In this document: in pieces, positions 29,066-46,789 of the stretch
Numbering within the stretch: position 1 is the first letter of the stretch
Layout: each line of letters opens with the position of its first letter
From: Phyllosticta citribraziliensis
Lineage: Eukaryota
Assembly (NCBI RefSeq): GCF_038025025.1
Contig: NW_027117344.1
Span: 124,001 to 188,000 of the forward strand
DNA length: 64,000 nucleotides
Direction of reading: 5' to 3'
Position numbers and translations under genes: made by a program
Notes under the pieces: generated by a model
The model's database searches: none
Seen by the model: the letters and a program-made list of their open reading frames with translations, nothing else
Told to the model about the DNA's origin: nothing

Positions 29066-32000
29066 CTACACAGCCCTCACCCCCGCCAAATCCCTGCGCC
29101 AATCCCACGTACTCAAAAAGCTGTCCGCAGCCTCAACGACGGCATCGACGTCGAGCTCTTCGTCATCCCCCAGTAGCGCGCCCGAGACTTGCTGCGCGTC
29201 CGGCAGCCGCGCCGCAAAGCCCGCGTGGCCAGACGCTGGAGCCAATGTGCTGCTGTCGGTGCGGCGACGCTTCTGGCGGCGCTTGCGCGGCGAAGAGGAA
29301 GGAGCGGAGAGTGGATGGTTGGAGGCCTGCGTGGCGGGTTGCGAGAAGTGGAAGGCTGTCGGCGGGGCAGTCGAAGATGGGGGGAGAGAAGAGGGTTGGA
29401 TGCGGCGGCGGTGGTGGTGGTGGTAGAGGACTGGCGACACGGACGCCGACGCCGACGCCGACGGCGTGGGCTGTGAGGCAGACGGCTTGTTGATTGGCGT
29501 CCACGAGGGAGTTCCCTGACGCGTGAGCGAGTGGGCGCGCGACGGCGAGACGCCAGGCGTGCTGGCAAGCACCAAGTGGCTCTCGACGGGCGGGAACATG
29601 GTCGAGGGGTCGGCGAAGGTGGTGTCGCCGTCGGCATACGCGTTGGCAGCAGGTCTGCAGCTGGTGCTGGGAGTTGATTGATCTGGGCTGCCCGGCTGTG
29701 GGTTGAGCAGCGAGTGGATGATGCTGACGCGCTTGCGCGGCTTGGCCTTCTTGACGGTGCTGAAGGCGAAGGGAGATGCGGCATTGAAGAGATCTTGTGT
29801 GCTGACTGGTGGAGCAGCCGAGGCTGGTGGTTTTTGTGTCGATTTGGGGTCTCGATTGACCGTACGAAAGGGAGTTATAGGACTGAATGTTGGAAAGGGG
29901 CCAGTGGGAGGCGGTGTCGTGTTTTGGCTGCCTAGCATGGGTTCCATGAGGTTGTAAATATCGGACTTCTTTGCAGGAGAGACGAGCTGTTGCTGGAATG
30001 CTCGTTGGGCGGAGACGAGTGCGGCCTGTGTTGAAAAGTCCGGAGGTGGACTATCTTGGGTTAGATCGATGACAACAGGCCTGTCAGGAATAACCTCCTG
30101 GCTCAAGATGTCATGGGCCATGAGAATAGCTTCAGGCCCGCCTAGAGTAGTTCTCTGGAGCGGACTTTCATGAGCCACACCGTTGGCTTGAGGGCAGTCG
30201 GAGAGATGTTCTTGGGGTACGTTCTCGTGGGCCTCATCCGTGGTCTTGCGTCTGTGGGCGGTGTGCTTCTGGGGTAGAGTCTCGTGAGCCACGTCCGTGG
30301 TCTTGTGTCTGTCAGCGGTTTGCTCTGGGGGTAGAGACTTGTGAGCTATGTCCGGCCGGTGGGGGAGATTCTCTTTGGGCACATTATCAGGATCTGTATC
30401 ATTCGCCATTGGTCTGTCGGGGAGATTCTCTTGAGGTGGAATCGTTTGAGCCACAGACTTTGCCTTGTGCTCATCATCGAATCCTTCCTGAGGAAGAGTC
30501 TCATGAGCCACGTGGTTGGCTTCCAGCCCATCTGAAAGATTCTTCCGAGTTAGACTCTTGTGAGCCCCGTCCATGGTCTTGTACCCATCAGCGATATCCT
30601 CCTGGGGTAGAGTCTCGTGAGAAACACCATTAGTCTTGGGGTCGGTAGGAATATTCTCCTGGGATTGATTGTCGTCGACCACACAATGGCCTTCAGGCTC
30701 TTTAAGGATACGCCTCCGAGGTAGACGCTCCTGACCGGCATCCGTGGCCTTGGGCTTGAGGGAAATGTACTCTTCCACGATTGGTTCAGACTTGGAAGGA
30801 CTTTGCAGGCCTCGGTCTGACTGCGCCCGGTCATCTACTCGCAGTGGCGATGACCCAAACTTGACGGAGCGGGCGGTTGCTGCCCTCCGCTTCTCTCGCT
30901 TTGCTACAAAGACTCTTGGCTTTCCTTCGTCAGAGGGCTTTCGATAGACAAAGGGCGAATAGAGGACTGTCGGAGAGGCGTGCAGAGTGTGGTTTCTGTT
31001 CTTCTTGTCAATTTTTCGGCTAGGCTCGGATAGTCTGCGAACACCTTGAGGCCGACCGGGAGCTTCTTTTGGCGTCTCGCCATCGTATGGAACATTTTCC
31101 TGGCCCTCGGCGACTTTGATGACGTTGGTTTTGCGTGCTGGAGATGGGATCGTGAAAGCCACACTCCGAGAAGTGAGAGGAGCCCGCTCGCTCTTTGGTT
31201 CAGTAGGACCAGCGTCGTGACTTGCTTTCTTGCTTGGAGAGGCAGCACGTCTAGGAGATTCTTGGGTTTGATCCAACATTCTTACGTCCGACTCAATTTG
31301 GTCGTTGGAGTCTTCGACGTCAGGAATTCGTCGCACGGAATCCTCATCGACATTGGCTTGTAACGACGGCGGGATACCTGCCAATGTTGGTTGCGAGTTG
31401 GACCTGGCTTTGCCTGCGCCATCGGCCTCGTACAGGTCGAGGAGAGAGTCTGATGCAAATCCCCGGGTGTCCTTCTTCTTTTCCTTGAGATTCCAACACA
31501 GTTTTAGACCATTGGCCCCCAACACATGATTGACACTGGGATTCTTTTCAATTGAACGCGGGTGGGAGGGTTTGGAGGGCGTGTGGCTCTCCAAACCGTC
31601 GAGGCGATCTTCCAGCATCGAAATGTCGCCGTCGGCTACGGGCGATTCCGCACGTGGCTCCAACCGCCGCAACCACTCGCGGGTGGCTTCCTTGTTGTCA
31701 GAAGCTGCGGCGACTGCTGGAGTGACCTGACGAGGGGAAAGACTTGGAGTTCCATGGTCCGAGCAGTGCTTCTGCAACAATTTCTCCACCTTTTGCTTCG
31801 GAGCAGCCCGTCTCTGCGGTACCTCGTGTGATTTTCCCGTTGCCTTCTCCGCCACATTTGTAGATGTACAGTGTCGAAATGGACCTCGTAGGCGGGCACT
31901 CTGTATGCCGAGGGGATGGCCTTGAAGGTAGCGGCGGCTCAGATTTTCGACGCGTCGGCGCTTAGCATTGCGGTGGTCACCACGGAATTCGGCATCATCG

Positions 32001-32071
32001 ACGACATCTCGGGTGAAGAAGAAGTCGGCGTCGGGGTCGGCGAGATGGGTGTGCAGGAAGAGGGCTGCCAT
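29066..32071 (-). CDS. Large low-complexity hypothetical protein with internal 19-aa repeats
   Basis: Long ORF. Likely start MAALFLH at 32071, followed by KRRRVENLSRRYLQGHPLGIQSARLRGPF, and later STQAAL..AQRAFQ and STQDLFNAASPFAFST blocks. Divergent from the Cdc11-like gene. Confidence 0.8.
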   Translation of the reverse strand: MAALFLHTHLADPDADFFFTRDVVDDAEFRGDHRNAKRRRVENLSRRYLQGHPLGIQSARLRGPFRHCTSTNVAEKATGKSHEVPQRRAAPKQKVEKLLQKHCSDHGTPSLSPRQVTPAVAAASDNKEATREWLRRLEPRAESPVADGDISMLEDRLDGLESHTPSKPSHPRSIEKNPSVNHVLGANGLKLCWNLKEKKKDTRGFASDSLLDLYEADGAGKARSNSQPTLAGIPPSLQANVDEDSVRRIPDVEDSNDQIESDVRMLDQTQESPRRAASPSKKASHDAGPTEPKSERAPLTSRSVAFTIPSPARKTNVIKVAEGQENVPYDGETPKEAPGRPQGVRRLSEPSRKIDKKNRNHTLHASPTVLYSPFVYRKPSDEGKPRVFVAKREKRRAATARSVKFGSSPLRVDDRAQSDRGLQSPSKSEPIVEEYISLKPKATDAGQERLPRRRILKEPEGHCVVDDNQSQENIPTDPKTNGVSHETLPQEDIADGYKTMDGAHKSLTRKNLSDGLEANHVAHETLPQEGFDDEHKAKSVAQTIPPQENLPDRPMANDTDPDNVPKENLPHRPDIAHKSLPPEQTADRHKTTDVAHETLPQKHTAHRRKTTDEAHENVPQEHLSDCPQANGVAHESPLQRTTLGGPEAILMAHDILSQEVIPDRPVVIDLTQDSPPPDFSTQAALVSAQRAFQQQLVSPAKKSDIYNLMEPMLGSQNTTPPPTGPFPTFSPITPFRTVNRDPKSTQKPPASAAPPVSTQDLFNAASPFAFSTVKKAKPRKRVSIIHSLLNPQPGSPDQSTPSTSCRPAANAYADGDTTFADPSTMFPPVESHLVLASTPGVSPSRAHSLTRQGTPSWTPINKPSASQPTPSASASASVSPVLYHHHHRRRIQPSSLPPSSTAPPTAFHFSQPATQASNHPLSAPSSSPRKRRQKRRRTDSSTLAPASGHAGFAARLPDAQQVSGALLGDDEELDVDAVVEAADSFLSTWDWRRDLAGVRAV
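30065..30680 (-). repeat. About 10 degenerate 57-bp (19-aa) coding tandem repeats
   Basis: VSHETLPQEDIADGYKTMD / VAHETLPQEGFDDEHKAKS / IAHKSLPPEQTADRHKTTD / VAHETLPQKHTAHRRKTTD and others. Confidence 0.85.
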
Positions 32072-32736
32072 TGAGGAGGATGGTAGAGGGACGGAGGCAC
32101 AGAGGTTAGCAAGATGGCATGGTTTTTCTGGTGGTGCAAGGTGAATAAGCGGTGACTGGAGCGACGGAGGCCGGCACAGGCAGTGGTTTTGGCGCTTGGA
32201 GCAACGGGCACTACGCAACGAGCGGAGGCGTGCGAGGGCCAGACAGCGAGTCGGGAGACGCGTCGAGGACGAGCCAAGGCCGTGAGCCCAGCGGAAGGGC
32301 GCAGCGGGTCTTTTGTGGGCGGGCCGTGGTGGTGGAGGCGGGAGTCGTGGAGGATTTCTGGAGACGCGCACGTCGGGCCTTTGGCTGGTGTTGCGGGTTG
32401 CCGTGGCAACGATCCCGGTCTCTCTCCCGCTGTGGTTCCTGTCCATCTCGCCCGTCCGTGCCCGCCAGGTCCATCATCATAATACTACTCCACGGCTCGA
32501 GAACTAGCGACGCCACTTCTTCGCATCAGCCTGTCGTTCGGCCATCTCTCCTCTCACTCTCACTCCTCTCTCGTCGTGCGCGCGTCGCCCCTCCTCTCGC
32601 GCTTCACGCCGCCCTCCCTCCACCGTCGACCTCACCTCACCCACAGGCCGCCGCAGAGGCCATCATACGCCGCCAGCCTGTCGCGTCGTGGGATCGACAG
32701 GCCTGCAAATCGCGCCCAATTTCCAATTTCACGACA

Positions 32737-35700
32737 ATGGCACAACCATGGCTGGACGACCTGTCCGAGGACTGGCTTCCTCAGCCCGCCTCTTCTCCTC
32801 CGTCGCGTCGCGACTCTTCGGCTGCAAAATCTTCCTTCGACTCGAACCCACCTTCATCCCGCAGCCGCATACCACGACTCAAGAGCTCTCCAGCTCCCGC
32901 AGCCTTGCACACGCCGAACACGGAGCCTGTCGCGAGGCAGTTGCCCGGCAAGCGCAAGAACGTCCTCGCCGAGCGCAGCAAGAGCGACAACAACATCCTA
33001 AACAACCACCCCGCAACCTCACCCGCGCGCCCCAATGAATCGAGGGTCCCGTCGCATCCGCGATCCATTTCAACCTCATCTGCCGACTCCGTAGTGCGAA
33101 ACGGCACCGTCGAAATCAAGAGCGCCGCGCCCTTGCAGACCAAGCGACCACACGACACTCCCGAGTGGAAGCGCAGATTGATACACGGCAGGATGGGGTA
33201 CGGTGACCAAAAGGACTTGTTTAGTCCTATGGGGCTGGAGAATATTTTTCAACAGCCGGCCCCTGCACCTTCATCGTCGCCCGACAGAAAAAAGGGCCGT
33301 CTCTCGATGCTCAAAGATAGCGTCGTCATGCCGTCCAGTCCCCCGCCATGGCCGTCCCAAATTTCTCAAAGCTCACCATCCAAGCCTTCATCCCGCGACT
33401 ACGACGCGTTGGAAGAGGACTCTATGCAAAGCGTGGCGGAGAGGCCAGAGTCTGAGGATGGTTCAGTGGTCCAAACGAGGAACCCTCCAAAACTTCAGCC
33501 CATCCACGAGCACTCAAGCTTGTCCATGAAGGATCGGTCTCGTGTCACCAGCGGCCAGACTGAATTGACAGACGACAGCTTCAGCCCTGTATATATTTCT
33601 AGGCGCAACACCAAAGATGGAGGCATCGAATACCAGCCCCTGGACCTGTCCAAGTCTGAATTGGAGAGGGTTAAGAACCAATCCGAAAAGACCGATCCTG
33701 CTGCCTTCAACGAGAGCCTGAACAGCAACGGCAATACCGACATTTCGACCTTTTCAAAATTGCGATCAGAAACGCTCCCCGATGACCTTCCTACTGGCAC
33801 CCCTGATCATCTCAACGTTGGACAGTTTGTAAATCTCAAACGTGGTGGGTTTTCTGCCGATGGCTCGTTTAGAGAACGTCCCCTCAGCCCTTCCCCGTTG
33901 AAAGGAGGGACTTCGGACCCCAACGATCCAGCTCGCCAAGAAGACTCGCAGGCGACTGTGCCTATGTTCGAAGGACCAGCCATGCATATTCGTCGTCAGA
34001 TTCCTCGTTCTTCCAGCCCTCCACTGTCTCCGAAAACACCTGCACGGAGACAACCAAATTTGGACTCTGACAGGCCAAGATCCTCTGGAAGCCCTCTGAA
34101 GCTCTTCGGCGACCATGATACTTTCACGGCCAATCGGTTGTTTCGCAGAATGAGCCAGCTGGAAGATGCTTTGCCTACCACAGCAAATTCCAGCAGGCCT
34201 AGCAGCTCAGAGTCACCAGAAAAACGTCTCGAGGCATGGTTACCGTCGGTCGAGGAGGGATTCCACGAGTCGGATGACAACGAGGAACAATTCCGAACTT
34301 CAAACGGGAGCTACTTTGGTCGCGGCGAGCTGGACCACCACCGATTCCCAGAAGAGGAGTTTTCCTCTTCCCGCAACTCCACCTCTTACGATGATGACGT
34401 TGCTGCCTCTCGTCCCATTTTGCCCGAGTTCAAGTTCAACCTGATCGACGGCAACGTCCACCAGTCGAGCGTCAACAAGAGGAAGCTGTCGAGGCATACT
34501 GTCAAAAGTGGGGCGACTACCATGACAAACAAGAGTTCCATCAAGATTCCAAAATCACCCCGCCTGAGTCCCAACCAGCTGTTTCCTGCTCTCAGCTCAA
34601 GTCATTTGCCACCTGATTCTGAAGCGTCGGAGGGAAAGCGACCACCAACTTCTCCATTCAAGAATCCCCAGCCAAAGCGGCGACGCACTCTTCTCTCATC
34701 TGAGCTAGGTGATGCTGATTATTACTCGTACGACAAGCTTCAATTGGCCCTCGAGGATCCCCACGAAGATGCCCTGTCTTCGCAATACGCCCTGCGGCCC
34801 CGCAATCCAACGCCGAGCGAAAGCAGACTGGAGCAAGTCCAGCGTCAAGTCTTGAATGCAACCGATGCCTATCTGCACAACTCGCCAAAAGCTTTGCATG
34901 TCATTCAAGAGCATGTAGAGAGTCCGTCTTCCCGTCGTCTATCCGAGGAGAGGGAACACGAGCGAGCCATTGCTCGTGAGGTTGCCACATTCACCGTCAG
35001 AATGAATCAGCGCATGAGAGACGAAGACCGCAAGCGTTCCGTCACTACCCAGGACTTTTTGGACCAGGCTCGCTTGATCATGGACCACATCCGGACACGC
35101 GGACGTCCAAATAGTGCGCTGGAAAGCTTGGCCGAATCGGAGCAAAGTCCACTGCGAGAGAGGTCAACCTTTCTTCAAGTGCCAGAAAGCCCACTGTCAT
35201 TCTCGCGACCTCCAAGCCGTGAAGGCCCAAAGGATGGATGGAGTAATCCCTCTGCTCCGAGGACTTCTGATGCTCGCGTCGTTAGCCACCTCAAAAAGTT
35301 CCAAGAGACTGATGGAGAAGACTTTATGATGGCAAGCTTTCGCTCGAACAATCTCAGGCACTATGAAGATCGCACTAGCGAAGAGAGTCGCTTCCATGAC
35401 GGCCAATCTCCCGACATTCGCATCTTGACGAGGAATCTAACCATGCAAAGACGGCGAGACCGCAGTCACTCGGACGGCAGCCCACCTGGCACAAAGTCTT
35501 CCCAGTCGCCACGCTCCAGACGGTCAACTCTCGACTCATCCCTAGGAAGAACCAATGTCACCGGAATTTCTCGTCGTTCTGAAAATGTTGCCAATCTGGC
35601 TCCTGGGGCGGTCGCGCACCTCATTCCACAGGAACTGGCTGGCATGACTTTTGACCGCGAAAAGGGTATCTGGGTCAGGCGAAACGCAAAGAGCCAAAGG

Positions 35701-38559
35701 TCCAATCTTGACGTAAGCAACATTACCACTAGTGACGATGACCCTTTGAAGAACATTCCGGACCTGACGGTGGACGAGGTCAATGAGAAGCGCCAGGCCG
35801 AGTACCCACCGTCCATGTTTGAAGAAGCCAACGAGTTCCTCCAGAGCTACCGCGAAAAGGATGCCCCTTCTCGACAAGCAAGTGGAGAAAGACCGCAGAC
35901 GAGAGAGGGAGCGGAGATTCCCGTTTCCGACACCAACAGCGCTAAGTCCAAATTCTCTGTCAATCTCTCATCGAGTGCTATGCAGCCCGATACCAGAGCC
36001 ACTTCGGTGAGCGACAAGCACGGCCATGGCGGTTTGAAGCCAGTGGCTCGAGAGGAAACAATCCCCGAGGTCCCTTCGTCCATCAATCGGTCCTCCATCC
36101 ACGAAAGTTTCCAAAAGGAGCTGAGGAAGCTGTCTGGAAAATCTTTTGATAGAAAAGGAGCAAGCTTTCGCCAAAAGTCTTTCGACGAAGACAAGACGAT
36201 TGAGCTGCCGTACCTTGGCAACTACCAGACCGAGGACCAGGACGAAGCGACGCCTCTCAAGCGTGACTGGGCAACGCCACATCCGCGCTTCAACAACTTC
36301 CGCAGTGTCACCAAGGAGACCGTCACCGACCACAGCCCTACGCCTCCTCGGCAAACACATGCTGATCTGTCTTTAATCCACCGTGCTGAAATGTATTCTG
36401 AGCAAGGAAACAGCCCGTTGCGGTTCAGCGTCAGCATCACCAGACCCCTCAAGACGAGCGTCTCCAAACCTCATGGTTCGTCCGTCGGCTCCAATGCTGT
36501 CGGCCCGTATTCGCCCAAGGCTGGCACTGCATACACGACATTTTTGCTCTCAGAATTGCCCGAGTTCACGCTGAACCAGATTGATGAAAAGGAGCTTCCC
36601 AATCGTCTGGTCAAGAAGGTCGCCGCTGGCGAAAAGCAGGCTCTGTCGGTCCTCGAAGATAGATTTGCTCAAGGAACCCTGGAGCTGGTCAAGGCTTTGC
36701 AAGATGAGGCTCCAGAAGAGCTTTTCTGGGAAGATTTGAGGACCGTCGGCCTGCGGAATAAGGATCTGCCAACTCTGCACCGCCTCGACGAACTTTGCAC
36801 CAAGGTTGAAAACCTGGACGTCAGCAACAACCACATTGCGCAGTTGACGGGTGCACCGCCGTCTATCCGCCGACTCAACATCCAAAATAACTGCGTAACC
36901 AGTCTGACTGGATGGGGCCATTTGGTAAATCTTCAATACTTGGACGTGTCAGGGAATGCCCTCGACAGTTTGATTGGCTTCAAGGGTCTCGTGCATCTTA
37001 GAGAAATTCAGGCGGATGGCAATCAAATTGAGGACCTCGACGGTGTCCTGGGTCTTGACGCACTGATCAAGCTGAGCGTCAAGAACAACAAGATTCGTCG
37101 TGTGGATCTCAGAGGATGTGCGCTCGATACTTTGGTGGAGTTAGATCTGGGCGGGAATGCGATCAAGAGTATCAGGGGGCTCGAAGAGTTGCCGTTCCTC
37201 GAGCGGCTAGGCCTGGGTAAGCTCCAAGAACATGCTTCAAGATTCAAACTGACTGCTCTAGATGACAACCAACTCGTCCAATTTCCGACGCACACTCTCA
37301 CGGCCAAGGCGCATCGGCTGCGCAACCTGAGCTTGAACCGCAACCGCTTGATGACCCTCTCGCTCTCCCGATTCCCCTCTCTCGTATCCGTCTCGTGTGA
37401 TTCGAACCACTTGCCGTCGATTCCCGAACTGAACACGCTGCGACACCTCCGAATCCTTTCTGCGCGTGACCAGCAGCCGACCAGTCCTTTCAACGCCAAC
37501 GCCTTCTTCAGCAACCCTGACTTGAACGAGTTGTACCTCTCTGCGAACTCCATCTCGCATTTCACGCTACCTGCTGACGTCTCTCTCCTCAACTTGCACC
37601 GGCTGGAGCTCGCCAATTGTGGACTTGTCGCATTGCCCGAGCGCTTCGGTCTGTTGGCACCAAACGTGAGGATCCTCAACCTGAACGCCAACGCCATGCG
37701 GGATCTGCGGCCGCTGCTCAACATGAAGAAGCTGCGCAAGCTCGAAGTTGCTGGAAATCGCCTGCAGCGCCTTCGCCGCAACGTTCTCGTGCTCAGCAAG
37801 CTTGGCTCTTCGCTGAAGACGGTCGACATGCGCAACAACCCGTTCAACGTGGGGTTCTATGCGCAACCGTTGCTCGCCTCAACCCTCGCCGCCGCCTCTA
37901 CGGCCGCGCTGGCACAAAGCAAAGTCAGAGCTTCCAAGGATAACGGCAGCGCCCTCCCCCGCCTACTCACTGCGCCGCCTCCAGCCAGCGCGCCTGGGTC
38001 CTTCACGTCGGCAGCTGGTGGCGGTGTCGCCTCGCCTACCTTTTCTCCCCTATCGTTCCCGTCCACTGTGACCTCGTCCTTTGTCTCGCACCCAGCCGAC
38101 GACTCCGACGACGAGACTCCGACGCAGGCCGACGACGCCGACCCCTTCACTTCCTCCCAGCGCTTCTACGCCTCGCCGCACCCTGCCAACCTGCACAGTC
38201 TCCCACCGCAGCCCGCCGCGCTCGACGCAAACTACCGCGTCCGTCTGGACGCAGACACGGCGCTGCGGCGCCGCGTGTACGAGATGCTGGTCGCGCATGC
38301 GTGCGAGGGCGTCAAGAAGCTCGATGGGCTGTCGTTTGATCGCACGCGGGTGCTGGGCGCCGCATCCGGTAAAGGGGGCGGCAAGGCTCGCGCCGAGGAC
38401 GACGGCGTGTGGGCCCGTTTGATCGAGGTTGGTGTTGTGCGGCGGAAGGAGAAGGGCAAGAATGTTGCTGGCACGAGTGCGAGTGCCGGTGGGCACGGCG
38501 CCCCTGCGGCTGCGGCTGCGGCTGGGACGAGCATGAGGAGCTTTGAGAGCGTGGATTGA
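32737..38559 (+). CDS. cdc11: Septation initiation network scaffold, Cdc11/Nud1/SepK-like leucine-rich-repeat protein
   Basis: MAQPWLDDLSEDW start, TPEWKRRL and DLFSPMGLE blocks, long S/P-rich region, C-terminal LRR array. In-frame 45-nt intron at about 37217-37261. Confidence 0.85.
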   Translation: MAQPWLDDLSEDWLPQPASSPPSRRDSSAAKSSFDSNPPSSRSRIPRLKSSPAPAALHTPNTEPVARQLPGKRKNVLAERSKSDNNILNNHPATSPARPNESRVPSHPRSISTSSADSVVRNGTVEIKSAAPLQTKRPHDTPEWKRRLIHGRMGYGDQKDLFSPMGLENIFQQPAPAPSSSPDRKKGRLSMLKDSVVMPSSPPPWPSQISQSSPSKPSSRDYDALEEDSMQSVAERPESEDGSVVQTRNPPKLQPIHEHSSLSMKDRSRVTSGQTELTDDSFSPVYISRRNTKDGGIEYQPLDLSKSELERVKNQSEKTDPAAFNESLNSNGNTDISTFSKLRSETLPDDLPTGTPDHLNVGQFVNLKRGGFSADGSFRERPLSPSPLKGGTSDPNDPARQEDSQATVPMFEGPAMHIRRQIPRSSSPPLSPKTPARRQPNLDSDRPRSSGSPLKLFGDHDTFTANRLFRRMSQLEDALPTTANSSRPSSSESPEKRLEAWLPSVEEGFHESDDNEEQFRTSNGSYFGRGELDHHRFPEEEFSSSRNSTSYDDDVAASRPILPEFKFNLIDGNVHQSSVNKRKLSRHTVKSGATTMTNKSSIKIPKSPRLSPNQLFPALSSSHLPPDSEASEGKRPPTSPFKNPQPKRRRTLLSSELGDADYYSYDKLQLALEDPHEDALSSQYALRPRNPTPSESRLEQVQRQVLNATDAYLHNSPKALHVIQEHVESPSSRRLSEEREHERAIAREVATFTVRMNQRMRDEDRKRSVTTQDFLDQARLIMDHIRTRGRPNSALESLAESEQSPLRERSTFLQVPESPLSFSRPPSREGPKDGWSNPSAPRTSDARVVSHLKKFQETDGEDFMMASFRSNNLRHYEDRTSEESRFHDGQSPDIRILTRNLTMQRRRDRSHSDGSPPGTKSSQSPRSRRSTLDSSLGRTNVTGISRRSENVANLAPGAVAHLIPQELAGMTFDREKGIWVRRNAKSQRSNLDVSNITTSDDDPLKNIPDLTVDEVNEKRQAEYPPSMFEEANEFLQSYREKDAPSRQASGERPQTREGAEIPVSDTNSAKSKFSVNLSSSAMQPDTRATSVSDKHGHGGLKPVAREETIPEVPSSINRSSIHESFQKELRKLSGKSFDRKGASFRQKSFDEDKTIELPYLGNYQTEDQDEATPLKRDWATPHPRFNNFRSVTKETVTDHSPTPPRQTHADLSLIHRAEMYSEQGNSPLRFSVSITRPLKTSVSKPHGSSVGSNAVGPYSPKAGTAYTTFLLSELPEFTLNQIDEKELPNRLVKKVAAGEKQALSVLEDRFAQGTLELVKALQDEAPEELFWEDLRTVGLRNKDLPTLHRLDELCTKVENLDVSNNHIAQLTGAPPSIRRLNIQNNCVTSLTGWGHLVNLQYLDVSGNALDSLIGFKGLVHLREIQADGNQIEDLDGVLGLDALIKLSVKNNKIRRVDLRGCALDTLVELDLGGNAIKSIRGLEELPFLERLGLGKLQEHASRFKLTALDDNQLVQFPTHTLTAKAHRLRNLSLNRNRLMTLSLSRFPSLVSVSCDSNHLPSIPELNTLRHLRILSARDQQPTSPFNANAFFSNPDLNELYLSANSISHFTLPADVSLLNLHRLELANCGLVALPERFGLLAPNVRILNLNANAMRDLRPLLNMKKLRKLEVAGNRLQRLRRNVLVLSKLGSSLKTVDMRNNPFNVGFYAQPLLASTLAAASTAALAQSKVRASKDNGSALPRLLTAPPPASAPGSFTSAAGGGVASPTFSPLSFPSTVTSSFVSHPADDSDDETPTQADDADPFTSSQRFYASPHPANLHSLPPQPAALDANYRVRLDADTALRRRVYEMLVAHACEGVKKLDGLSFDRTRVLGAASGKGGGKARAEDDGVWARLIEVGVVRRKEKGKNVAGTSASAGGHGAPAAAAAAGTSMRSFESVD

Positions 38560-39549
38560 GCTTGCTGCGTGTGGGGCGGGCGTCTTTTCGGTTCGTTTTC
38601 TTCCGCCCTTCGACTGGGTACTGTTTGGTTCTGTGTTTTGTTCCACTGGTGTTTGGATGGTTGGATGGTTGGTTGGCTAGGTGGGCGGGCCTGGGTGCAT
38701 GGCGGCGTTTTCATCATCGTCAATTATGAGTTACATTACATTGTGGGCATGCATACATACATACGTACTGGTACTCATGCAGCAGACTTTTCTCTGTGTC
38801 TGTCTCTCTCTCTCAATCACTCTCTCGCTCTCTTCTGTGGCTGGCTGGCTGCTGGCCGGCAACGAAACTTCTCATCGTCAACAACCACAACAACTTCTTC
38901 CTCTTTCATTCGCCCTTCGCGTCCATAACTTGTCTTTGCTGGTGTTTCGGAAGGCGGGAGCAAGAGGCGGTTTTCGGCTGGCGAAGTGAGGGTGTTGGTG
39001 TTTATTTGGATTGGTTTGGCGGTTGTGGCGGCGTTATGATAGTGTTTTGACTGCGCTTTGGATTGCTCTTGGATTGTTGCTCTTGCGTTGCTCTTGGGTT
39101 GCGGGGAGTGATGTTGGTGATTGGTGTTGCTTGTTGCTGTGATGAATGCTTCTTGTTCGCTACAGCAGCAGCAGCAGCAGCAGAATGGAGGAGCCGTGAG
39201 GTCGGTGAGGTTGGTGAGTGGGTCGGTGGGCTTTGGGCTAGCTTGCTGTTTGGTGGGGTATTGCCGTGTGGACACGGCAGTGACGGATCTAAGTGAGTAG
39301 GTTAGTTGCTGTTTGGTAGATTCGTGTGTGGTAGGTCGTGCGGACCGTGATGGATGCTCCTTTCTCACGAGGAGAGCTGGTGTGAGGCAAGTGACGAATG
39401 CTCCCTGCTCACTACAGCAGCGTGAAAGAGAAGAGACAAGCGTAGGCCGTTGGCCTTCCGCGGCGCTTTGCTGTTTGGGGTATTGCTATGTGGTCTTCGA
39501 GTGAATGGCGAGTTGTCACTTCAGCGTCACTTCCCTCTGCTAACGCACA

Positions 39550-39700
39550 ACGGTACCAAACGGGCTTAGAGCAGGCGCTCAGCGGTAGCCGAGCCCACAA
39601 ACAGGCGCTGCGTGGGCGCTGCGTGGGCGGTGGGCGCGTGGGTATAAAAGGACCGCCCCCCAGCCCCCCCCGGATTTGACGAAGACGAGACACCGCACTT
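39550..39700 (+). promoter_or_regulatory. TATA-containing promoter duplicated with orphan genes A and B
   Basis: ccaaacgggcttagagcaggcgctcagcggtagccgagcccacaaacaggcgctgcgtgggcg...TATAAAAGGA...ttgacgaagacgagacaccgcac is nearly identical to 41150-41275. Confidence 0.85.
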
Positions 39701-39776
39701 TTCTCCATCATCACGCCCTTGCCGCCCCATTTGCCCTTGCGCCCCATTGCCCTTTGCGCCCCACTCGTCTGCCATC

Positions 39777-40209
39777 ATGGCCGGTCCCCCGCTCGCCCAG
39801 TGCACTTGCACCCCCTGCCACGTTTGCAAGTGTAAGTTTTTCACCTTCCTTTACCAGGTTCAGGTCACTGACCGTTCAAGTCGCCGCCGTTGACTCTGCC
39901 CTCGCCAGGGCCAAGGAGCGTGGCCGTCCATATTGGAGTCAGCGTTCTCTGGTCAGGGAAGCCGCATGCGCCCTCGACCATGTCGGCAAAAGCGGTCCTC
40001 GCCGCTTCTACACCAGTGAGTCAAAGCCGCGATGTCGTCCTCCACGCGTTGTTGTGAGACTTACAAGGGCAGGTGACATGACCGACGACCTCCAGCAGAG
40101 GGCTGGTTCGCCCGAGACCTCAGCGGCCTGGTTGGAACGATACCACCGTTTCCATGCGATGTTCAAGCAGCTCGCCGCTTGGGGATACCTTCAGCCTTCA
40201 AAACAGTAA
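39777..40209 (+). CDS. Small orphan family protein, copy A
   Basis: MAGPPLAQCTCTPCHVCK|FAAVDSALARAKERGRPYWSQRSLVREAACALDHVGKSGPRRFYT|SDMTDDLQQRAGSPETSAAWLERYHRFHAMFKQLAAWGYLQPSKQ*, with two phase-1 introns. Confidence 0.7.
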
Positions 40210-40212
40210 ACG

Positions 40213-40802
40213 GTACGTGATCTTGTGTGGATTAACTGTTGATGACTTTTGCTTACACTCCTTTCGCAGCCTTTCGAAACCGAGCTTCCCACAGTCACAG
40301 AACACCCATTGCGGTCCCCTTGGACGCGCAGAATCAGGCAAGTGAGTGACCTTGTGCTAGATCCTCTGTTGATGACTTTTGCTAACATTCTTTTCGCAGC
40401 TCTGCGATCTTGAGCTTTCTTTGCTGTCGGCCTCTTTCTCTACGCGTCTTCCTTAGGATGCACGGCCTGGCCTGCCGAGTACGCCTTCTTGCACTTAATC
40501 CCACCTCTTGACTTTTGCTTACATTCTTCCTTTCACAGTGTTTTTGCGCCTGCACCTTTTCGGTTTTCGTTTCAGTCTCGTTTTGGCGGCCAGACGTCCC
40601 TGGTATGTGGCCTTGCACTGAGTCCTCCCTCTTCAACTTTCGCTTACGTTCTGCCTTGCATAGCTTCTTGACGCACAAGAATCTGTCTTGAGTCAGTTCT
40701 GGGACGTCCGTCCTATGGCGGAGGCCTTCCTCTGTCTGCCTCGTATGTGGCCTCGCACTGAATCCTCTCTTCACGATTCCGCTGACAATTTCTCTTTCGT
40801 AG
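40213..40802 (+). repeat. Array of five homologous intron-shaped repeats (57-61 nt) separated by unique 64-79 nt segments
   Basis: Units at 40213-40269, 40342-40399, 40479-40538, 40603-40663 and 40743-40802. Each starts with a GT donor-like hexamer (GTACGT, GTGAGT, GTACGC, GTATGT x2), has a GCT(T/A/G)AC branch-like box and ends YAG. Confidence 0.85.
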
Positions 40803-41149
40803 CCTTTTTGCCCTTCCGTCTGCCTGTTTTTTGAGTCATCCATAGCGGCCATCCTCGTGGTCTTAGCTTCATGACAATACATCTTCTCGCAGACAAAAAC
40901 TCTAAACATCAGTTGTCAATTATGAATCTTCCTCCATCGTGATTTCAATCATCCGCATGCTTTGCGTAGTAGAATTGCGAAAGCTACAATCAATGGACAT
41001 CTGCAAAGACAACCTGTTCAGCAAGGTCGACGGCCTTTGATGAGGGCTTTCAGTGTGCCAATTTTGTTGAGTTGTGAATGCCTTTCGCACACTAGCCGTA
41101 TTAATGTCGTTTTCACTCCGGTTGCTTCTCTATGCAGGCGCAGGACGGC

Positions 41150-41275
41150 ACCAAACAGGCTAGAGCGGGCGCTCAGTGGGAGCCGAGCCCACAAACAGGC
41201 GCTGCGTGGGCGGTGGGCGCGTGACTATAAAAGGACTGCCTCCCCCCCGAGTTGACGAAGACGAGACACCGCACC
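41150..41275 (+). promoter_or_regulatory. TATA-containing promoter of orphan copy B
   Basis: Near-identical to 39550-39700, with TATAAAAGG at about 41226. Confidence 0.85.
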
Positions 41276-41334
41276 GTTCGCTCCATAACCACGCCCTTCC
41301 CGCCCCGTTCGCCCATCGCGCCCCATCAGTCATT

Positions 41335-41891
41335 ATGTCCAGACTTGTCACAAATTCAGAATGGAATCAAGCCTTGCGCGAGGGCGCTTGCCGGCGCTCT
41401 TCGCCTCGTCGTGGCCCCCCGGCCTCGACGGAGAGCTGTAAGTCCCTGACCCCGCTTTCACTTGGTACCCAGATCACTGATCGTCAAAGTTGTCGATGTT
41501 GATCAGGCCCTGAGCAGGGCCAGAGACCGTGGCCGTCCCACCTGGAGCCAACGCTCACAGCTCCAGGAGGCGGCCCGGGCTTTGGACCTCATTGCCAGAG
41601 GCGGTCCCAAACGTTTCTTTTTCGGTGAGTCTAAGTCACGATCGTGTCCTGAACTTGTCGCAAAACTGACCATGGCAGCTGGTGTGATCGATGAGCTCCT
41701 CTTGCACGCACACAAGCCGGAGGTTTCAGCCGCCTTCCGTGAACGCTGCCGTCGCCTTTTCGCCATGTGGGCTGAGCTGGGAGCGTTGGGAAGACTGTCG
41801 CCCCACGGCGAGGAAGCAGTAAGTGACCTCAGCTTGGATTACCTGTTCATGACTCTTGCTTACACTCCTTTCGCAGCCTTTTCGCGCTTGA
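41335..41891 (+). CDS. Small orphan family protein, copy B
   Basis: MSRLVTNSEW...|FVDVDQALSRARDRGRPTWSQRSQLQEAARALDLIARGGPKRFFF|AGVIDELLLHAHKPEVSAAFRERCRRLFAMWAELGALGRLSPHGEEA|PFRA*. Clear homology to copy A. Confidence 0.72.
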
Positions 41892-42621
41892 GAGTTCTCC
41901 ATGAGCACAGTTTCTGCCGGGTATGCCGCAAGTTCAGTCGGGTATGTGACCTTTCACTGAATCCTCTCTCGACGACTTTTGCTAACAATCCCTCTTTCGT
42001 AGTGTCTTTCCCTTTCGGTCTCCTTTCGCGAAGAGTCAATGACAACAACCACCTCCCAGTGCTTGTTTCATAATACATCTTCTCACAATGAGAAATTCCA
42101 ATACAAATTACCAATTATGAACTTCTCTTCTCCGTGATTTCAAACAACTGTATTTTTGAAGTGTTGAACGTAAGATCATAAATTGAATGGGTCGCCAGTA
42201 CGACTGCCGTTCAGCAAGTTGAATGGCCTTCGATTGAGGCCCAGCAAATTGCAGTATATATTTCACACTGAATAGTTTGTGGATGGATTTGGCGCAGACT
42301 CGGCGCAAAGCGTCCTCAAAACATCGCCGCGCTTCGAAGGTTTCTTTCTATCGCGACCTTCCACATCATCGGAGGGGCGCTCCGCGACGAAACAGCCCTC
42401 GAGGATGAGCTCATCCGTGACGTGAGGCTCGTGTTGCAGACCGGGAAGATTCAACTGTGCATTTCCCTGTCAATCCAGCCTTTCTTCGACATGCATCATA
42501 TTCTGCGACAAGACGCGCACCGCTCTTTCGACCGGACCCGGCTCGAGGCGCAAGGTCCGACGTCACCAAAACACCACACACAACCACAGCACCATCTCGA
42601 CCAACCTCCGACTTCGTCACC

Positions 42622-43039
42622 ATGGTGCTCAAACTCTCCGAATCGCGTAAGCCAAGAACCACCTCACGTTGCAGGGACCTCACCAGCTGACTGCCAAAGT
42701 GTACTGGGTTTCCTGGCTGCTCGATGTGGCGGAATCCCCAGAAAAGAGCGCCGAGAGGAAGTGCTCCCTCCTCCGAGCCGCCGCCGTGCGCCTCGACACA
42801 GTAAACGACCCTGAAGATACCACGGAGCGCCCGAGGCGCCAGTTCAGCAGCAAGTTGCGCCAGATTCCGCGGCGCGCTTCCAGGAGCTGACCGTGACAGT
42901 GAGCCTCGTCGACGAGCTTCGCGAGCGGGCTTCACGTCGAGCGACGCCTTGGGAATGGTGCCACTTCTTCAAGCGCATCGTTGCGATGTCTGAGGAGTCG
43001 GGCTTCTACGGCGAGGGCGATGGCGATGACCCCGAATAA
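42622..43039 (+). CDS. Small orphan family protein, copy C
   Basis: MVLKLSES|LYWVSWLLDVAESPEKSAERKCSLLRAAAVRLD...RRQFS|MSLVDELRERASRRATPWEWCHFFKRIVAMSEESGFY...*. The second intron needs a GC donor (GCAAGT). Confidence 0.6.
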
Positions 43040-44007
43040 AGTTGCGCAGGTACGTGGTCTTCGACGGATTCTCTGTTGCTGATTCTCGCTGACACTTTCG
43101 CCTTTTTGCAGCTCATCGGCGGCCTTTATCTGTTCACCTTACCTGGTTTTCCGCGTGGAACGAACACGTCGCGTTGCGCTGCGCCAGTGCCGGCGACTTT
43201 GCGCTGACGCCTTCATCTTCCCCAGCCCACCGACATGTAACACTTCCTTCGCTGGATTGGCCTACCTGGCATGGTACTTGTACGGGTACGTTGAGCTTTC
43301 CTGGCCCTGCTGCCATTGCCTTGTGCTGACACAGTCGTCTTTCAAGGTTGCCCCCGCACCAAGAACTTCGCCGGAACACACCTGTACCGCGCTAGACAGC
43401 TACAATGATCAATCGAACATCACGCTTCGTGCATCCTCCTGCGTCGTGCCTTTCATAATGCATCTTCTTCTTTAAATACAAACAACGGGGTGGGCAAGAG
43501 TATACTACGAATTGGTTTTGATTTCAAGCCGCGTACTCTTCTGCTTTTGTCCTGCATGCAGGGCAATTCCCTTGCTCACGGCCAAAATGAAGGCGTGTTG
43601 TGCAAGATTCGTAGTTAAAACAGTGTCCGAATTGAATGGGTTGGGGAAGCCTTCTGCTCTTCTTTGCAGGCCAAACAACCCCAGTGGTGTTAAGTGGCCT
43701 CAGAAAGGCCGTTTCGTGATGACTTCGGGCAAGCTCCGCGACAAAACAACGCTCAATTGACAAGAGAGGCGTAAGAGACGAGAGGCTCGCGTATATGGTA
43801 GAAGGAGGCGGTATGTGGAGCCTTGGCGAATCGCCTGCGGTCAAACTACACATTGCCTTCGGCTGCATTGTCGCTGTTAACTTCAATTCACTTTCTTCGC
43901 GCACCGCCTGCTGGCTCTGTATAAATATCTGCTTGGCGCCCTCCAGCCCTCATCACCAAACAAAACACTTCCTTCTCCACGACCAACCTCCATCACAACC
44001 CCAGATC

Positions 44008-44461
44008 ATGGAGCAAGCAAACCTCTGTAAGCATCCAGCCGCCTCCTCTACCAACTACCCCACTGACAAACTACAAAAGACACCTTCATCGACTCTCTCC
44101 TGGTCACGGCAAGCGGCTGCCACCCGCTATCCGAAGGCCGTCGCGACCTCCTCCGCGACGTGGCCATCCGCCTCGACCCATACCCACGAGCAGGGCCGAT
44201 GCTCTACGACCGTGAGTTTAAGGCCGCTCTAAAATAATTCCGCATGGTGCTGACTGGAAGCGCAGATGTTGTCGTCAACCATCTCTTGCACGTCGCCGCG
44301 CGCCCGGACGCTTCCAACGCGTGGCGCCTCCGCTACGACCGCCTCGTCGCCCTGGCAAGAGAGGTGTACGTCGTGGAGGCCTCCGTAAGCAACGTCCCTC
44401 AATACTTTTGGAGACCCTCACTGACTTTGGGATGTGTCACCAGCGCCAACGGATAAGGTAG
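44008..44461 (+). CDS. Small orphan family protein, copy D
   Basis: TATAAATA at about 43920. MEQANL|YTFIDSLLVTASGCHPLSEGRRDLLRDVAIRLDPYPRAGPMLYD|HVVVNHLLHVAARPDASNAWRLRYDRLVALAREVYVVEAS|RQRIR*, intron phases 1,1,0 as in copy B. Confidence 0.68.
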
Positions 44462-46789
44462 CTTGAGCGGAGAGCTTGACCCTGCGGCGGAACACATTGG
44501 AGGGCGGCAGCTTGGGATATGGGGGGCACAGTTTTGGTCGGGCGGGATACTTGGGGCGTTTCGGTCAGGCATGAGGTTGGAGAGAATGGGTAGAGAGCTC
44601 CAATGTTGAATGCTCCCTGCGTCCTTCAGAACGGTTTCTCTTGTGAGATGGATAGGCATAATGGAGCTGCTGTCTGCCGACTTCGAGTCGTGATCTACAA
44701 CGTGAGACTACGCCCTTTGAATGTTGAAACATGAGCGCGATGTCGAAAAACGAGGAAGTCAATGGTAGTGTGTCTGACCCAAGGATGCACCCTGACCCGA
44801 TGGAAGACAGCAGAGGGCCTTGGCCGCTGGCATGCCCGCCCTCAATTCAACTGCTTTGGTGAAAGGAGTAGTCGCAGCGGGTGCCGAAAGATCTGAGGCT
44901 CGCAAGTTCTAGCCGCAGCAACGAATGACTGCTCCCTAAGCGCATCAGTGATAGCGGATGAATGCTTCCAAGGTGTCACTGTTACCTCGGACGACTGCTC
45001 CTTGGGCGCACTCGTGGCATTGTACGTATGTCCTGGCCGACTGTCGCAAGAATTCGGTGTCTCCGATCAGACAAATCTCAGGACGACATTCCCAAAGCCT
45101 CGCCCGTTTCCTGGGCGGCTCACCGCAGCTTGAATCATCGTCGATTGTGCCGAGCTCTACTCGACGTCTCTTCCTGCTAATGACTTGCCAGAAACAAACA
45201 GGTACTTGCTTATATAAACAACAGCGGAGATTGTGGTAGTGTCCAGCAAGATCGGGTGTCGGGTGTGCCTGTTCCGGCAAACGGGTCAAAAACGTCGGCC
45301 AGGGTACGCGCGCAAAGGCCGCGTCTCCTACGTCAAAGAAGAGGCTGTATTGACAAAGCGATGGGGCTCCGAAATAGATTCATGGAGAGGTAGTGCAATG
45401 GAGGCTCCGTTTCAGCAACACCAGCCGCTTGTCCATGCGCCGGTGGCGCCGCGGCTAGCGGCCAGCGGCGAGCGTCTTTGGTGGGGCGAGTGGATTGCCG
45501 CGTGCGAAAGCTGACTCGTACGAGAAAGGTTTGCCCCAGCAAGCATCTCCCAGAGCCCGTCCTAGTCCTTGGCTACGGTAACGCGATAGCCCGAGATATG
45601 TCGCAGCCCGCAATCGAAGGAAGCCAACGCTGATACGAGAACAGTCGATGGCAAACAGGGGAGCCACAAGTACGTCGCGCGTCGGGACCGCGCGACCTGA
45701 CGAGCAACAGTCGTTCCAACATGCTCTTCCGAACAAAATGACAGCGTTGCACTTCAGGCATCGGTATCTGGAGTCGTTAGGTGAAGTCTTCGGAGGCATG
45801 AGAGAAACAAGATGGGGTTGGTTTAAAGTTTCGCTTACATCGGGCCGGGCCGTCTCCACAGGAGATGGTGGAACGCTCCTTCGCACGCCACACAAACAAA
45901 CGAACGGTCAATGAGACATGCTATGCTAACGAGAAGGCTGGAAAATGGTGATTTTGCAAAGAGCTGGAACGTAGTTGTGGAATTCTTGCCCATTTCGTCC
46001 TTGATTCCCGGGGAAATCGACGATTGCTCCACAATGGCCCAGGCTGGCAAGATCTGGCGTCCGCGAAACCTCAGCCACATTCTCCAACTTCTGGGAGAAT
46101 GATCAAGATCAAGATAAACAATCTCTTGGTGGCATTGCTTGATGGCACGCCGCGCAGTAGTTGTCCATCAGATCCAATTCAAGCAGAAAACGACGCTCCC
46201 TGACTGAGCCGCAGGTCCAACGTGAGCAAAGCTCACTCATTATCCGCAAGCGGAAGCGCCATGAGCTTCGCGATCGCTCTGCTCAGCGACCGGCTGTGGG
46301 CTGTGTTCAAAACGTAATCCATTTTGTCCGGGAAAAGACAAATTCTGATGGGAAATAGGATGAGCTGTCAGCTTTCTGGCTAAAACTCGATTGGGTTGTT
46401 GAACTTACGGGTAGAGTGTCGCATCGGTGGTTGTTTGAAAATGGGGCAAATGGATGGGCCTGACGGATGGCGGGGAAGTCAGAAGGTGGACGCTTGGGTG
46501 GTGTTGGTGGTAGATCTGGCGCCCGTACATTTTGTTGTGCGGCCAGCCACTTGAGGGCACCCGGACGCCTGGATCCAAGCCTGCTGCCCGGTAGAGGAAG
46601 GAGCACCATCAAGCGGCCCACAAACAATTTTTGGACCTTTTTGTGTACGACCCGCCACGTTTTTCCTGATCCACTGATCCTTGCACCCGCACTGCTCCAC
46701 CACCATCCACCATTCACAACCCTCTACCATCCTACATTCAAGCTCTACGGAACACCTTTCCATCCCAAGTCTGGTCGGACGAGTATTCC

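Follow-up and report, generated by a model that had tools for sequence, protein, structure and literature searches.

The gene described here, gene A, carries five introns in series in the 3' untranslated region (3'UTR) of its mRNA. It lies in a stretch of 64,000 nucleotides of the genome of the fungus Phyllosticta citribraziliensis (assembly GCF_038025025.1, contig NW_027117344.1, positions 124,001 to 188,000 of the forward strand), which we call the window and whose own numbering is used for all positions. The five units are U2-type spliceosomal 3'UTR introns, and we are highly confident that they are real and homologous. A preliminary description of the sequence had offered serially duplicated 3'UTR introns as one of its interpretations, and this one stands, as the units are spliced and share homology with one another and with units of the neighbouring paralogs B and C. 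As the best explanation of the whole we favour, with moderate confidence, ancestral introns that were duplicated and kept by selection and that would couple the mRNA to the exon junction complex (EJC) and nonsense-mediated mRNA decay (NMD).

Splicing of the units in assembled transcripts

The RNA evidence consists of contigs assembled from two public runs (X1 and X2) of two studies, which share one coded organism, over positions 39600-43500; contigs hold no information on splicing efficiency or isoforms. In X1, a single 768-nt contig spans 39695-40842 and has all seven introns of gene A, two in the coding sequence (CDS) and the five units, removed at GT..AG borders. Joints 1-4 are seen independently in X2, whose contig stops at 40742 with 11 loose letters that are the sequence after 40802. 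The units are thus removed at their predicted GT..AG borders, all five in X1 and four, plus the fitting 11-letter end, in X2. Contigs of both runs likewise lack all four introns of paralog B, including its two related units, B1 and B2. Contigs cover only those blocks of A and B that are transcribed, leave the sequence between the two genes uncovered, and begin about 50-58 nt behind TATA boxes. We accept the contigs as RNA-derived because of the intron joints and this restriction of cover to transcribed blocks. No contig lies over gene C, which is not taken as evidence; its unit C1 and the terminal intron of paralog D stay predicted.

Use of the donor at 40213 leaves the TAA (40207-40209) in the mRNA, which makes the units behind it genuine 3'UTR introns. 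Their junctions fall 3, 75, 154, 218 and 297 nt after the stop codon, and we infer that the open reading frame (ORF) of 108 amino acids (aa) ending at this TAA is the one translated. The features of gene A are as follows; types I and II are the two groups of the unit tree described below, and units 1 to 5 are also written A1 to A5.

39695..40842, + strand: gene A mRNA (X1 contig of 768 nt, 7 of 7 introns removed)
39777..40209, + strand: gene A CDS, 108 aa, with introns at 39832-39880 and 40016-40072 and stop TAA at 40207-40209
40213..40269, + strand: unit 1 (type I), 3'UTR intron of 57 nt with its junction 3 nt past the stop; joint seen in both runs; identity 84% with B1 and 81% with unit 2
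40270..40341, + strand: 3'UTR exon s1, 72 nt, with background likeness to the other spacers
40342..40399, + strand: unit 2 (type I), 3'UTR intron of 58 nt; joint seen in both runs
40400..40478, + strand: 3'UTR exon s2, 79 nt, in RNA contigs
40479..40538, + strand: unit 3 (groups with type II), 60-nt 3'UTR intron, the most diverged, donor GTACGC; joint in X1 and X2
40539..40602, + strand: 3'UTR exon s3, 64 nt, in RNA contigs
40603..40663, + strand: unit 4 (type II), 61-nt 3'UTR intron; joint in X1 and X2
40664..40742, + strand: 3'UTR exon s4, 79 nt, in RNA contigs
40743..40802, + strand: unit 5 (type II), 60-nt 3'UTR intron; joint in X1, 11-letter loose end in X2; 82% identical to B2
40803..40930, + strand: terminal 3'UTR exon of A, in a contig to 40842 and inferred for the remainder; its distal 70 nt are 76% identical to the end of B

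The preliminary description had placed five units behind the stop codon of gene A, and its account of them is confirmed. Their starts are exact, with lengths of 57, 58, 60, 61 and 60 nt and start-to-start distances of 129, 137, 124 and 140 nt, and the first begins at 40213, behind the TAA. The donors of units 1-5 read GTACGT, GTGAGT, GTACGC, GTATGT and GTATGT; a branch-like GCT(T/A/G)AC motif and a YAG acceptor (CAG or TAG) are present in all five, as are the internal strings that had been quoted as shared between units.

Homology among the units

Gene A is the first of four small paralogs that stand in tandem on the + strand between 39.6 and 44.5 kb (ATG of A at 39777, of B at 41335, of C at 42622 and of D at 44008). 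Units resembling those of gene A are found at the 3' ends of B and C, and D has an intron at the matching place:

41284..42121, + strand: paralog B mRNA, 130 aa, ATG at 41335, stop TGA at 41889-41891; four introns, spliced in both runs
41819..41876, + strand: unit B1 (type I), phase-0 coding intron four codons before the stop of B; spliced
41942..42002, + strand: unit B2 (type II), 3'UTR intron, junction 50 nt after the stop of B; spliced
43050..43111, + strand: unit C1 (type I), predicted, 10 nt past the TAA of C (43037-43039)
44385..44443, + strand: paralog D, predicted terminal intron (phase 0) in the corresponding position, immediately ahead of the stop; 53-60% identical to the units, that is, not recognisably similar

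Pairwise identity is 63-81% among the five units of A and 60-84% among all eight units (those of A, B1, B2 and C1), compared with 48-61% between the units and five other introns of genes A, B and D and with 53±4% (maximum 62%) in shuffles. A profile built from B1, B2 and C1 only finds four of the five A units in the 64 kb at E 5e-10 to 4e-4 and the 3' half alone of unit 3 at E 0.14; nothing besides the units falls below E 1 in this search of the window. Conversely, a profile of the A units only recovers B2, B1 and C1 (E 9e-15, 2e-8 and 4e-4, respectively), and an independent repeat finder yields the same unit families. When the donor hexamer and the last 22 nt are removed, the core-only B/C profile still finds units 2, 5 and 1 at E 0.004-0.049 and misses units 3 and 4. 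Because these three of the five are found by their cores, the likeness of most units exceeds the splice signals, and the earlier claim of a similarity beyond generic signals is borne out to that extent.

The spacers s1-s4, at 46-63% identity, are at background, so the units (63-81%) align better than the sequence between them. The best of 28 local alignments between spacers has p 0.0066, which is not significant after correction. Only the first 10 nt after the acceptors are alike, with a mean pairwise identity of 0.45 against a null of 0.26±0.03 that was reached in 0 of 5000 resamplings; homology past the acceptor thus extends about 10 nt and is at background beyond. A likeness behind the acceptors seen by eye beyond these 10 nt failed a shuffle test and was discarded. 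On the other side, the 10 nt upstream of the donors are at background (0.28 vs null 0.26±0.03), as are the upstream 10-30 nt, and homology is thus sharp at the donor. The preliminary description had called the spacers unrelated to one another, which holds for their bulk and fails for the first 10 nt or so behind each acceptor.

Divergence of genes A and B and probable constraint on the units

The age of the array can be gauged against the divergence of A and B. In exons 2 and 3, 88 codons align well; for these, the proportion of synonymous differences (pS) is 0.71, that of nonsynonymous differences (pN) 0.35, and third positions are 41% identical; over all 108 aligned codons, pS is 0.67. Judged by these values, neutral sites between A and B are saturated. 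By segment, A and B are 43-64% identical in CDS exons, 56-60% in UTR exons, 67% and 72% in the CDS introns, 77% in the promoter, 76% in the last 70 nt of the mRNA, and 84% (A1-B1) and 82% (A5-B2) in the units. The non-coding blocks picked out between A and B by the repeat finder are 89-93% identical in the promoter and 74-81% at the 3' end. The observation of the preliminary description that here introns are more conserved than exons is corroborated by the comparison of paralogs. Towards gene C, the CDS introns of A have fallen to background (52% and 56%), and C1 is 60-74% identical to the A units.

That the units are 82-84% identical while synonymous sites are saturated argues that the unit sequence is constrained or homogenised. 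The retention of the ~60-nt unit together with the ~10 nt behind its acceptor is most likely due to purifying selection.

Probable duplication of two ancestral introns

A maximum-likelihood tree separates the units into type I (A1, A2, B1, C1) and type II (A3, A4, A5, B2) with a support of 87/90, which for a tree built on 61 columns is only moderate. Type I corresponds to the terminal intron, which A, B and C share at one gene position, and type II to the next intron downstream, common to A and B. Along gene A the order is I, I, II, II, II, so that copies of the same type are adjacent, which is the pattern expected of local tandem duplication. Identity between A and B at matching unit positions (A1-B1 84%, A5-B2 82%) is higher than identity between neighbours within A (A1-A2 81%, A4-A5 75%); it follows that there has been no homogenisation in the array and that the extra copies date back about as far as the split of A and B.

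We therefore regard local duplication with later constraint as the probable history. Types I and II would go back to a pair of ancestral introns at the extreme 3' end of the tandem gene family, and gene A would have gained its extra copies through old, local duplications. The UTR exons between the units would since have lost their resemblance by neutral decay, and the units would have been kept, most likely by purifying selection. The present dissimilarity of the UTR exons is accounted for by the saturation of neutral sequence between A and B, and unrelated spacers are no argument against tandem duplication at the DNA level because neutral decay at this age predicts them.

Possible consequences for the fate of the mRNA

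Introns behind a stop codon are a classic trigger of splicing-dependent mRNA decay, for which the mammalian literature gives a rule of junctions more than 50-55 nt past the stop. In the mature mRNA of gene A, four of the five junctions lie beyond this distance, at 75-297 nt, and the last junction of B lies at 50 nt. A control of mRNA stability or NMD, which had been raised as one possible role of the array, is plausible from these junction positions. In filamentous ascomycetes, junctions downstream of the stop codon can recruit the EJC and UPF factors, as described in the relevant part of PMC7746235, and in Podospora anserina about 3% of the genes are given as having a 3'UTR intron and as possibly NMD-regulated (PMC9801653, in part). 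By analogy, splicing of the units would place exon junctions downstream of the stop codon of gene A and recruit EJC and UPF factors there, the array would make the stability or yield of the mRNA depend on NMD/EJC activity, and the number of units, which differs between A, B and C, might tune the strength of this coupling. We put such an NMD-dosage function of the array forward as a tentative possibility.

It is a further and rather doubtful step to propose that the ~60-nt unit is a selected cis-acting module, a family-specific 3'UTR intron with an internal sequence that a dedicated factor recognises or that the splicing or EJC machinery reads in a special way. If this were so, the unit would have persisted beyond the time span that synonymous sites can register, its amplification to five copies in a single paralog would serve to set the dose, and duplicated UTR introns would provide a copy-number-tunable, splicing-dependent control of mRNA fate, be it of NMD sensitivity, export or yield.

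Alternative explanations

Several points weigh against the explanation that we favour. The k-mer depth in X1 is 118 for A and 128 for B, which is unlike a strongly degraded mRNA; in X2 the contig depth is 2.4-4.7 for A and 30.3 for B, and in neither run can contig depths rank genes. The runs are labelled 'RNA?' by guess, and their RNA nature rests on the joints and on cover being limited to transcribed blocks. Unit 3 matches weakly (E 0.14), and the core-only profile misses both unit 3 and unit 4. Tandem duplication of DNA should also copy the spacers, and saturation explains their dissimilarity by argument rather than by direct demonstration. That the homology breaks off sharply at the donor on its 5' side is equally compatible with a copying of introns only, and the search for copies covered 64 kb, which leaves room for dispersed copies in unrelated genes. 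Finally, one genome and units of 60 nt cannot separate purifying selection from patchwise gene conversion.

In one alternative, excised units re-entered the same transcript or gene, or that of a paralog, at new 3'UTR sites, by reverse-splicing transposition or a low-copy, Introner-like mobility, in which case the spacers were never duplicated and are pieces of a once continuous UTR. This accounts at once for homology that begins exactly at the donor, with the upstream 10-30 nt at background, for the unrelated spacers, and for units that are more alike across A, B and C than the CDS introns are (C1 60-74%, against 52% and 56% for A-C). The precise insertion of an intron does not, however, predict the ~10 homologous nt behind the acceptor, and the adjacency of same-type copies (I, I, II, II, II) is what tandem duplication of DNA predicts. 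As type I occupies one shared gene position in the three genes A, B and C, these copies at least were inherited rather than inserted; further, the length of 57-62 nt and the lack of a stable fold in all eight units are unlike Introner-like elements (ILEs), and unit copies are found neither elsewhere in the 64 kb nor, by their cores, in the metagenome scans. We consider intron-only copying improbable. Only slightly less improbable is that the array is functionless, a neutral leftover of a tolerated UTR duplication, with units that are spliced for no other reason than that they retain their signals and whose likeness is kept by patchy gene conversion between neighbouring copies and paralogs. A and B are 1.6 kb apart in the same orientation, their other non-coding blocks are alike as well (promoter 89-93%, 3' end 74-81%), and no structure, RNA family or known motif can be attached to the conserved core. 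Yet conversion would have to strike the promoter, both unit types and the poly(A) region and spare all coding and UTR exons; the units cluster by type and not by gene, without concerted evolution in the array; and only selection would hold five UTR introns splice-competent past synonymous saturation, all five of which are removed.

The preliminary description had also considered a local, Introner-like proliferation and a host transcript that releases small intronic RNAs, neither of which is supported. The units measure 57-62 nt and nine other introns of genes A-D 49-59 nt, so that the roughly double length of ILEs is not seen, and fold z-scores of all eight units (-1.33 to +0.98) are no better than those of shuffles, so that the stable fold, the second defining feature of ILEs that was tested, fails as well. 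The consensus structure energy of the units is -0.04 kcal/mol, with no helpful covariation. A search of 39500-43600 against Rfam matched no unit and gave as its sole match with E<=10 MEG8_1 (E 4.8, in the coding part of B), a chance match. All eight copies lie in three adjacent paralogs, with none elsewhere in the window, and are 60-84% identical rather than near-identical; metagenome scans with the type I core and the type II core returned no match each. The absence of a fold and of an Rfam match, the normal length and the lack of another copy in 64 kb thus argue against both an ILE and a small-RNA host. That the conserved part is the intron and not the exon would suit a transcript releasing small nucleolar RNA (snoRNA)-, mirtron- or stable-lariat-like intronic RNAs, but the gene has a real ORF conserved among four paralogs, and neither single units nor their consensus show structure. 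At 57-62 nt, the units are also shorter than typical box C/D snoRNAs. We regard a function as small-RNA host as extremely unlikely.

Scarcely more credible is that the downstream exons are, or recently were, coding, so that stop read-through or a donor at 40207 adds a C-terminal extension to the product of a decaying or alternatively spliced gene. Such an alternative donor, GTAAAC at 40207-40212, overlaps the TAA of A; its use would delete the stop and open 42 more codons across s1 and s2. Moreover, the matching unit of B interrupts the coding sequence in phase 0, four codons ahead of the stop, and the stop falls on different sides of the terminal intron in A, B, C and D. Against this, the 40207 donor is unused in the contigs of X1 and X2, which show the 40213 donor only; the spacer lengths of 72, 79, 64 and 79 nt keep no frame; the spacers are not conserved between A and B; and open stretches are expected in a UTR of 62-65% pyrimidine, where the three frames hold 4, 4 and 2 stops per ~141 codons. 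The earlier statement that the joined spacers give no long ORF is roughly right, with the qualification that another frame holds an ORF of 93 codons, which begins in CDS exon 3 of A and extends across the spliced UTR exons (window 39354-40700). We take it to be due to chance because stops are rare in all frames and its counterpart in B, of 51 aa, is unlike it by eye, a comparison made without alignment. An ORF on the minus strand (40382-40915, 177 aa) was set aside: it matches no Pfam family, and the GT..AG joints put the transcript on the + strand. Ancestral 3' introns, locally duplicated and then constrained, remain the explanation that we prefer.

The gene family and its surroundings

With 56% G+C and short GT..AG introns, the window appears to be a piece of fungal chromosome. 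Coding exons 2 and 3 can be aligned across A-D, and the ORF is conserved among the four paralogs; identity of B, C and D to A is 57, 32 and 30% in exon 2 and 41, 23 and 27% in exon 3. Profiles of these two exons found no fifth family member in the 64 kb. The spliced ORF of gene A (108 aa) equals P0001, named an uncharacterized protein of Phyllosticta citribraziliensis in the database, and that of paralog B equals P0002, with the source name uncharacterized or hypothetical protein of the same species; P0003, from P. citrichinensis, is a relative of paralog D. An exhaustive profile search of 1.84 billion representatives gave six matches with E<=0.001, of which P0001-P0003 are the only real relatives; the other three, with 8-13 short matched stretches each, were read as low-complexity. 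Word-based searches with P0001 and P0002 returned only themselves, and no Pfam family scored above cut-off for P0001-P0003. A lead from the Atlas to a CID/VHS domain was dropped, with a score of 0.83 below the bar of 0.9 and no backing from a fold search. The structure model of paralog B (five helices, mean pLDDT 69) had no match in the PDB with E<=0.001, the best being E 0.92. On the evidence of these searches, gene A is a small, fungus-specific, Phyllosticta-restricted gene.

The true 3' end of the gene A mRNA is probably near 40930, by likeness to the end of B. At the other end, a TATAAAAG box precedes the start of the mRNA by about 50 nt. In their promoters and 5' leaders, A (39540-39776) and B (41137-41334) share blocks that are 89-93% identical and include a TATAAAAG box and a GC-rich repeat. 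The A/B promoter appears as strongly kept as the 3' units, despite the 41% third-position identity in the CDS.

Gene C seems to require a GC..AG intron at 42850-42899 (donor GCAAGT) for its frame and has a candidate second 3'UTR intron at 43286-43346 (GTACGT...AAG, 61 nt), which the unit profile does not match with E<1. P0003, a database model of 211 aa, tracks D to the end of exon 3 and diverges at the predicted terminal intron of D (window 44268-44443); this divergence may be a difference between gene models or real read-on. Upstream of A lie G/T-rich direct repeats (39139-39421 and 39243-39494) of a 31-nt and a 27-nt family that end in a CTACAG-like sequence, with one further copy downstream of D at 44608-44629; these repeats resemble the 3' ends of introns. 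Also upstream of gene A is a perfect (CAG)7 microsatellite (39163-39183). An open frame of 2136 codons with leucine-rich repeats (32149-38559, + strand; LRR_4 E 4e-21, LRR_8 E 1e-16) stands just upstream of the gene family, and facing it is a frame of 1135 codons (29066-32473, - strand) without Pfam match.

Significance and comparison with known systems

Introns in 3'UTRs are uncommon in fungi, being present in about 3% of Podospora genes according to the portion of PMC9801653 on this point. The present family forms a natural series of one intron sequence, with five UTR copies in A, two copies in B (one coding, one UTR) and a single predicted UTR copy in C. The series lets one ask whether mRNA stability in a filamentous fungus is graded by how many junctions lie downstream, and why the internal sequence of a short intron outlasts the protein that it serves. 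In addition, it offers an RNA-verified case for the debate on intron multiplication, in which segmental duplication stands against transposition of introns within a transcript. The components, 3'UTR introns and introns duplicated within the same gene, are known, and it is their combination that was not met in our literature search: five homologous, RNA-verified introns, serial in one 3'UTR, common across paralogs and conserved beyond synonymous saturation. The same search turned up no account of such an array, nor of ILEs in Phyllosticta, and the available text of PMC4457414, which deals with ILEs, mentions neither Phyllosticta nor Botryosphaeriales nor Guignardia.

In animal toxin gene families with 'accelerated' exons, introns and flanks are more conserved than coding sequence. 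Genes A and B are similar in that their promoter, introns and 3' end are more alike than their exons, and differ in that their ratio of nonsynonymous to synonymous divergence (dN/dS) is below 1 (pN 0.35 vs pS 0.71) and that their exons look saturated, as do the UTR exons.

With the EJC-dependent NMD of transcripts with 3'UTR introns in Neurospora crassa (Zhang & Sachs 2015, as cited in PMC7746235), gene A has in common spliced introns downstream of the stop codon in the mRNA of a filamentous ascomycete; the known cases are described, in the parts of PMC7746235 and PMC9801653 that treat them, only as one or more introns near the stop or in the 3'UTR, whereas gene A has five homologous ones in series.

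The ILEs of Dothideomycetes, as outlined in PMC3609843 and PMC4457414, are present in tens to hundreds of copies in unrelated genes, have about twice the length of regular introns and have stable predicted folds. Gene A resembles them in holding a family of sequence-related spliceosomal introns in a Dothideomycete, all with normal splice signals. Its units differ in being 57-62 nt long and unstructured and, within the 64 kb, confined to three adjacent paralogs.

Closest to the array are the 'same gene duplication' (SGD) introns of fungi, described by van der Burgt et al. 2012 as summarised in Collemare et al. 2013 (PMC3609843). According to that summary, half of them have duplicated exon flanks, and for the other half intron transposition within a transcript or transfer between paralogs was suggested. 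Like the units of gene A, SGD introns are sequence-related spliceosomal introns repeated in one gene, of ordinary length and folding energy. Those reported in the available part of the summary are near-identical, at the level detected by BlastN among annotated introns, whereas the copies in gene A are old and, in pairwise comparison, 63-81% identical from the worst pair to the best. A further difference is that here five stand in a row in a 3'UTR, and that the units have relatives in two neighbouring paralogs and are better conserved than synonymous sites. Of the classes compared, the SGD introns, as they are set out in PMC3609843, fit the units best.

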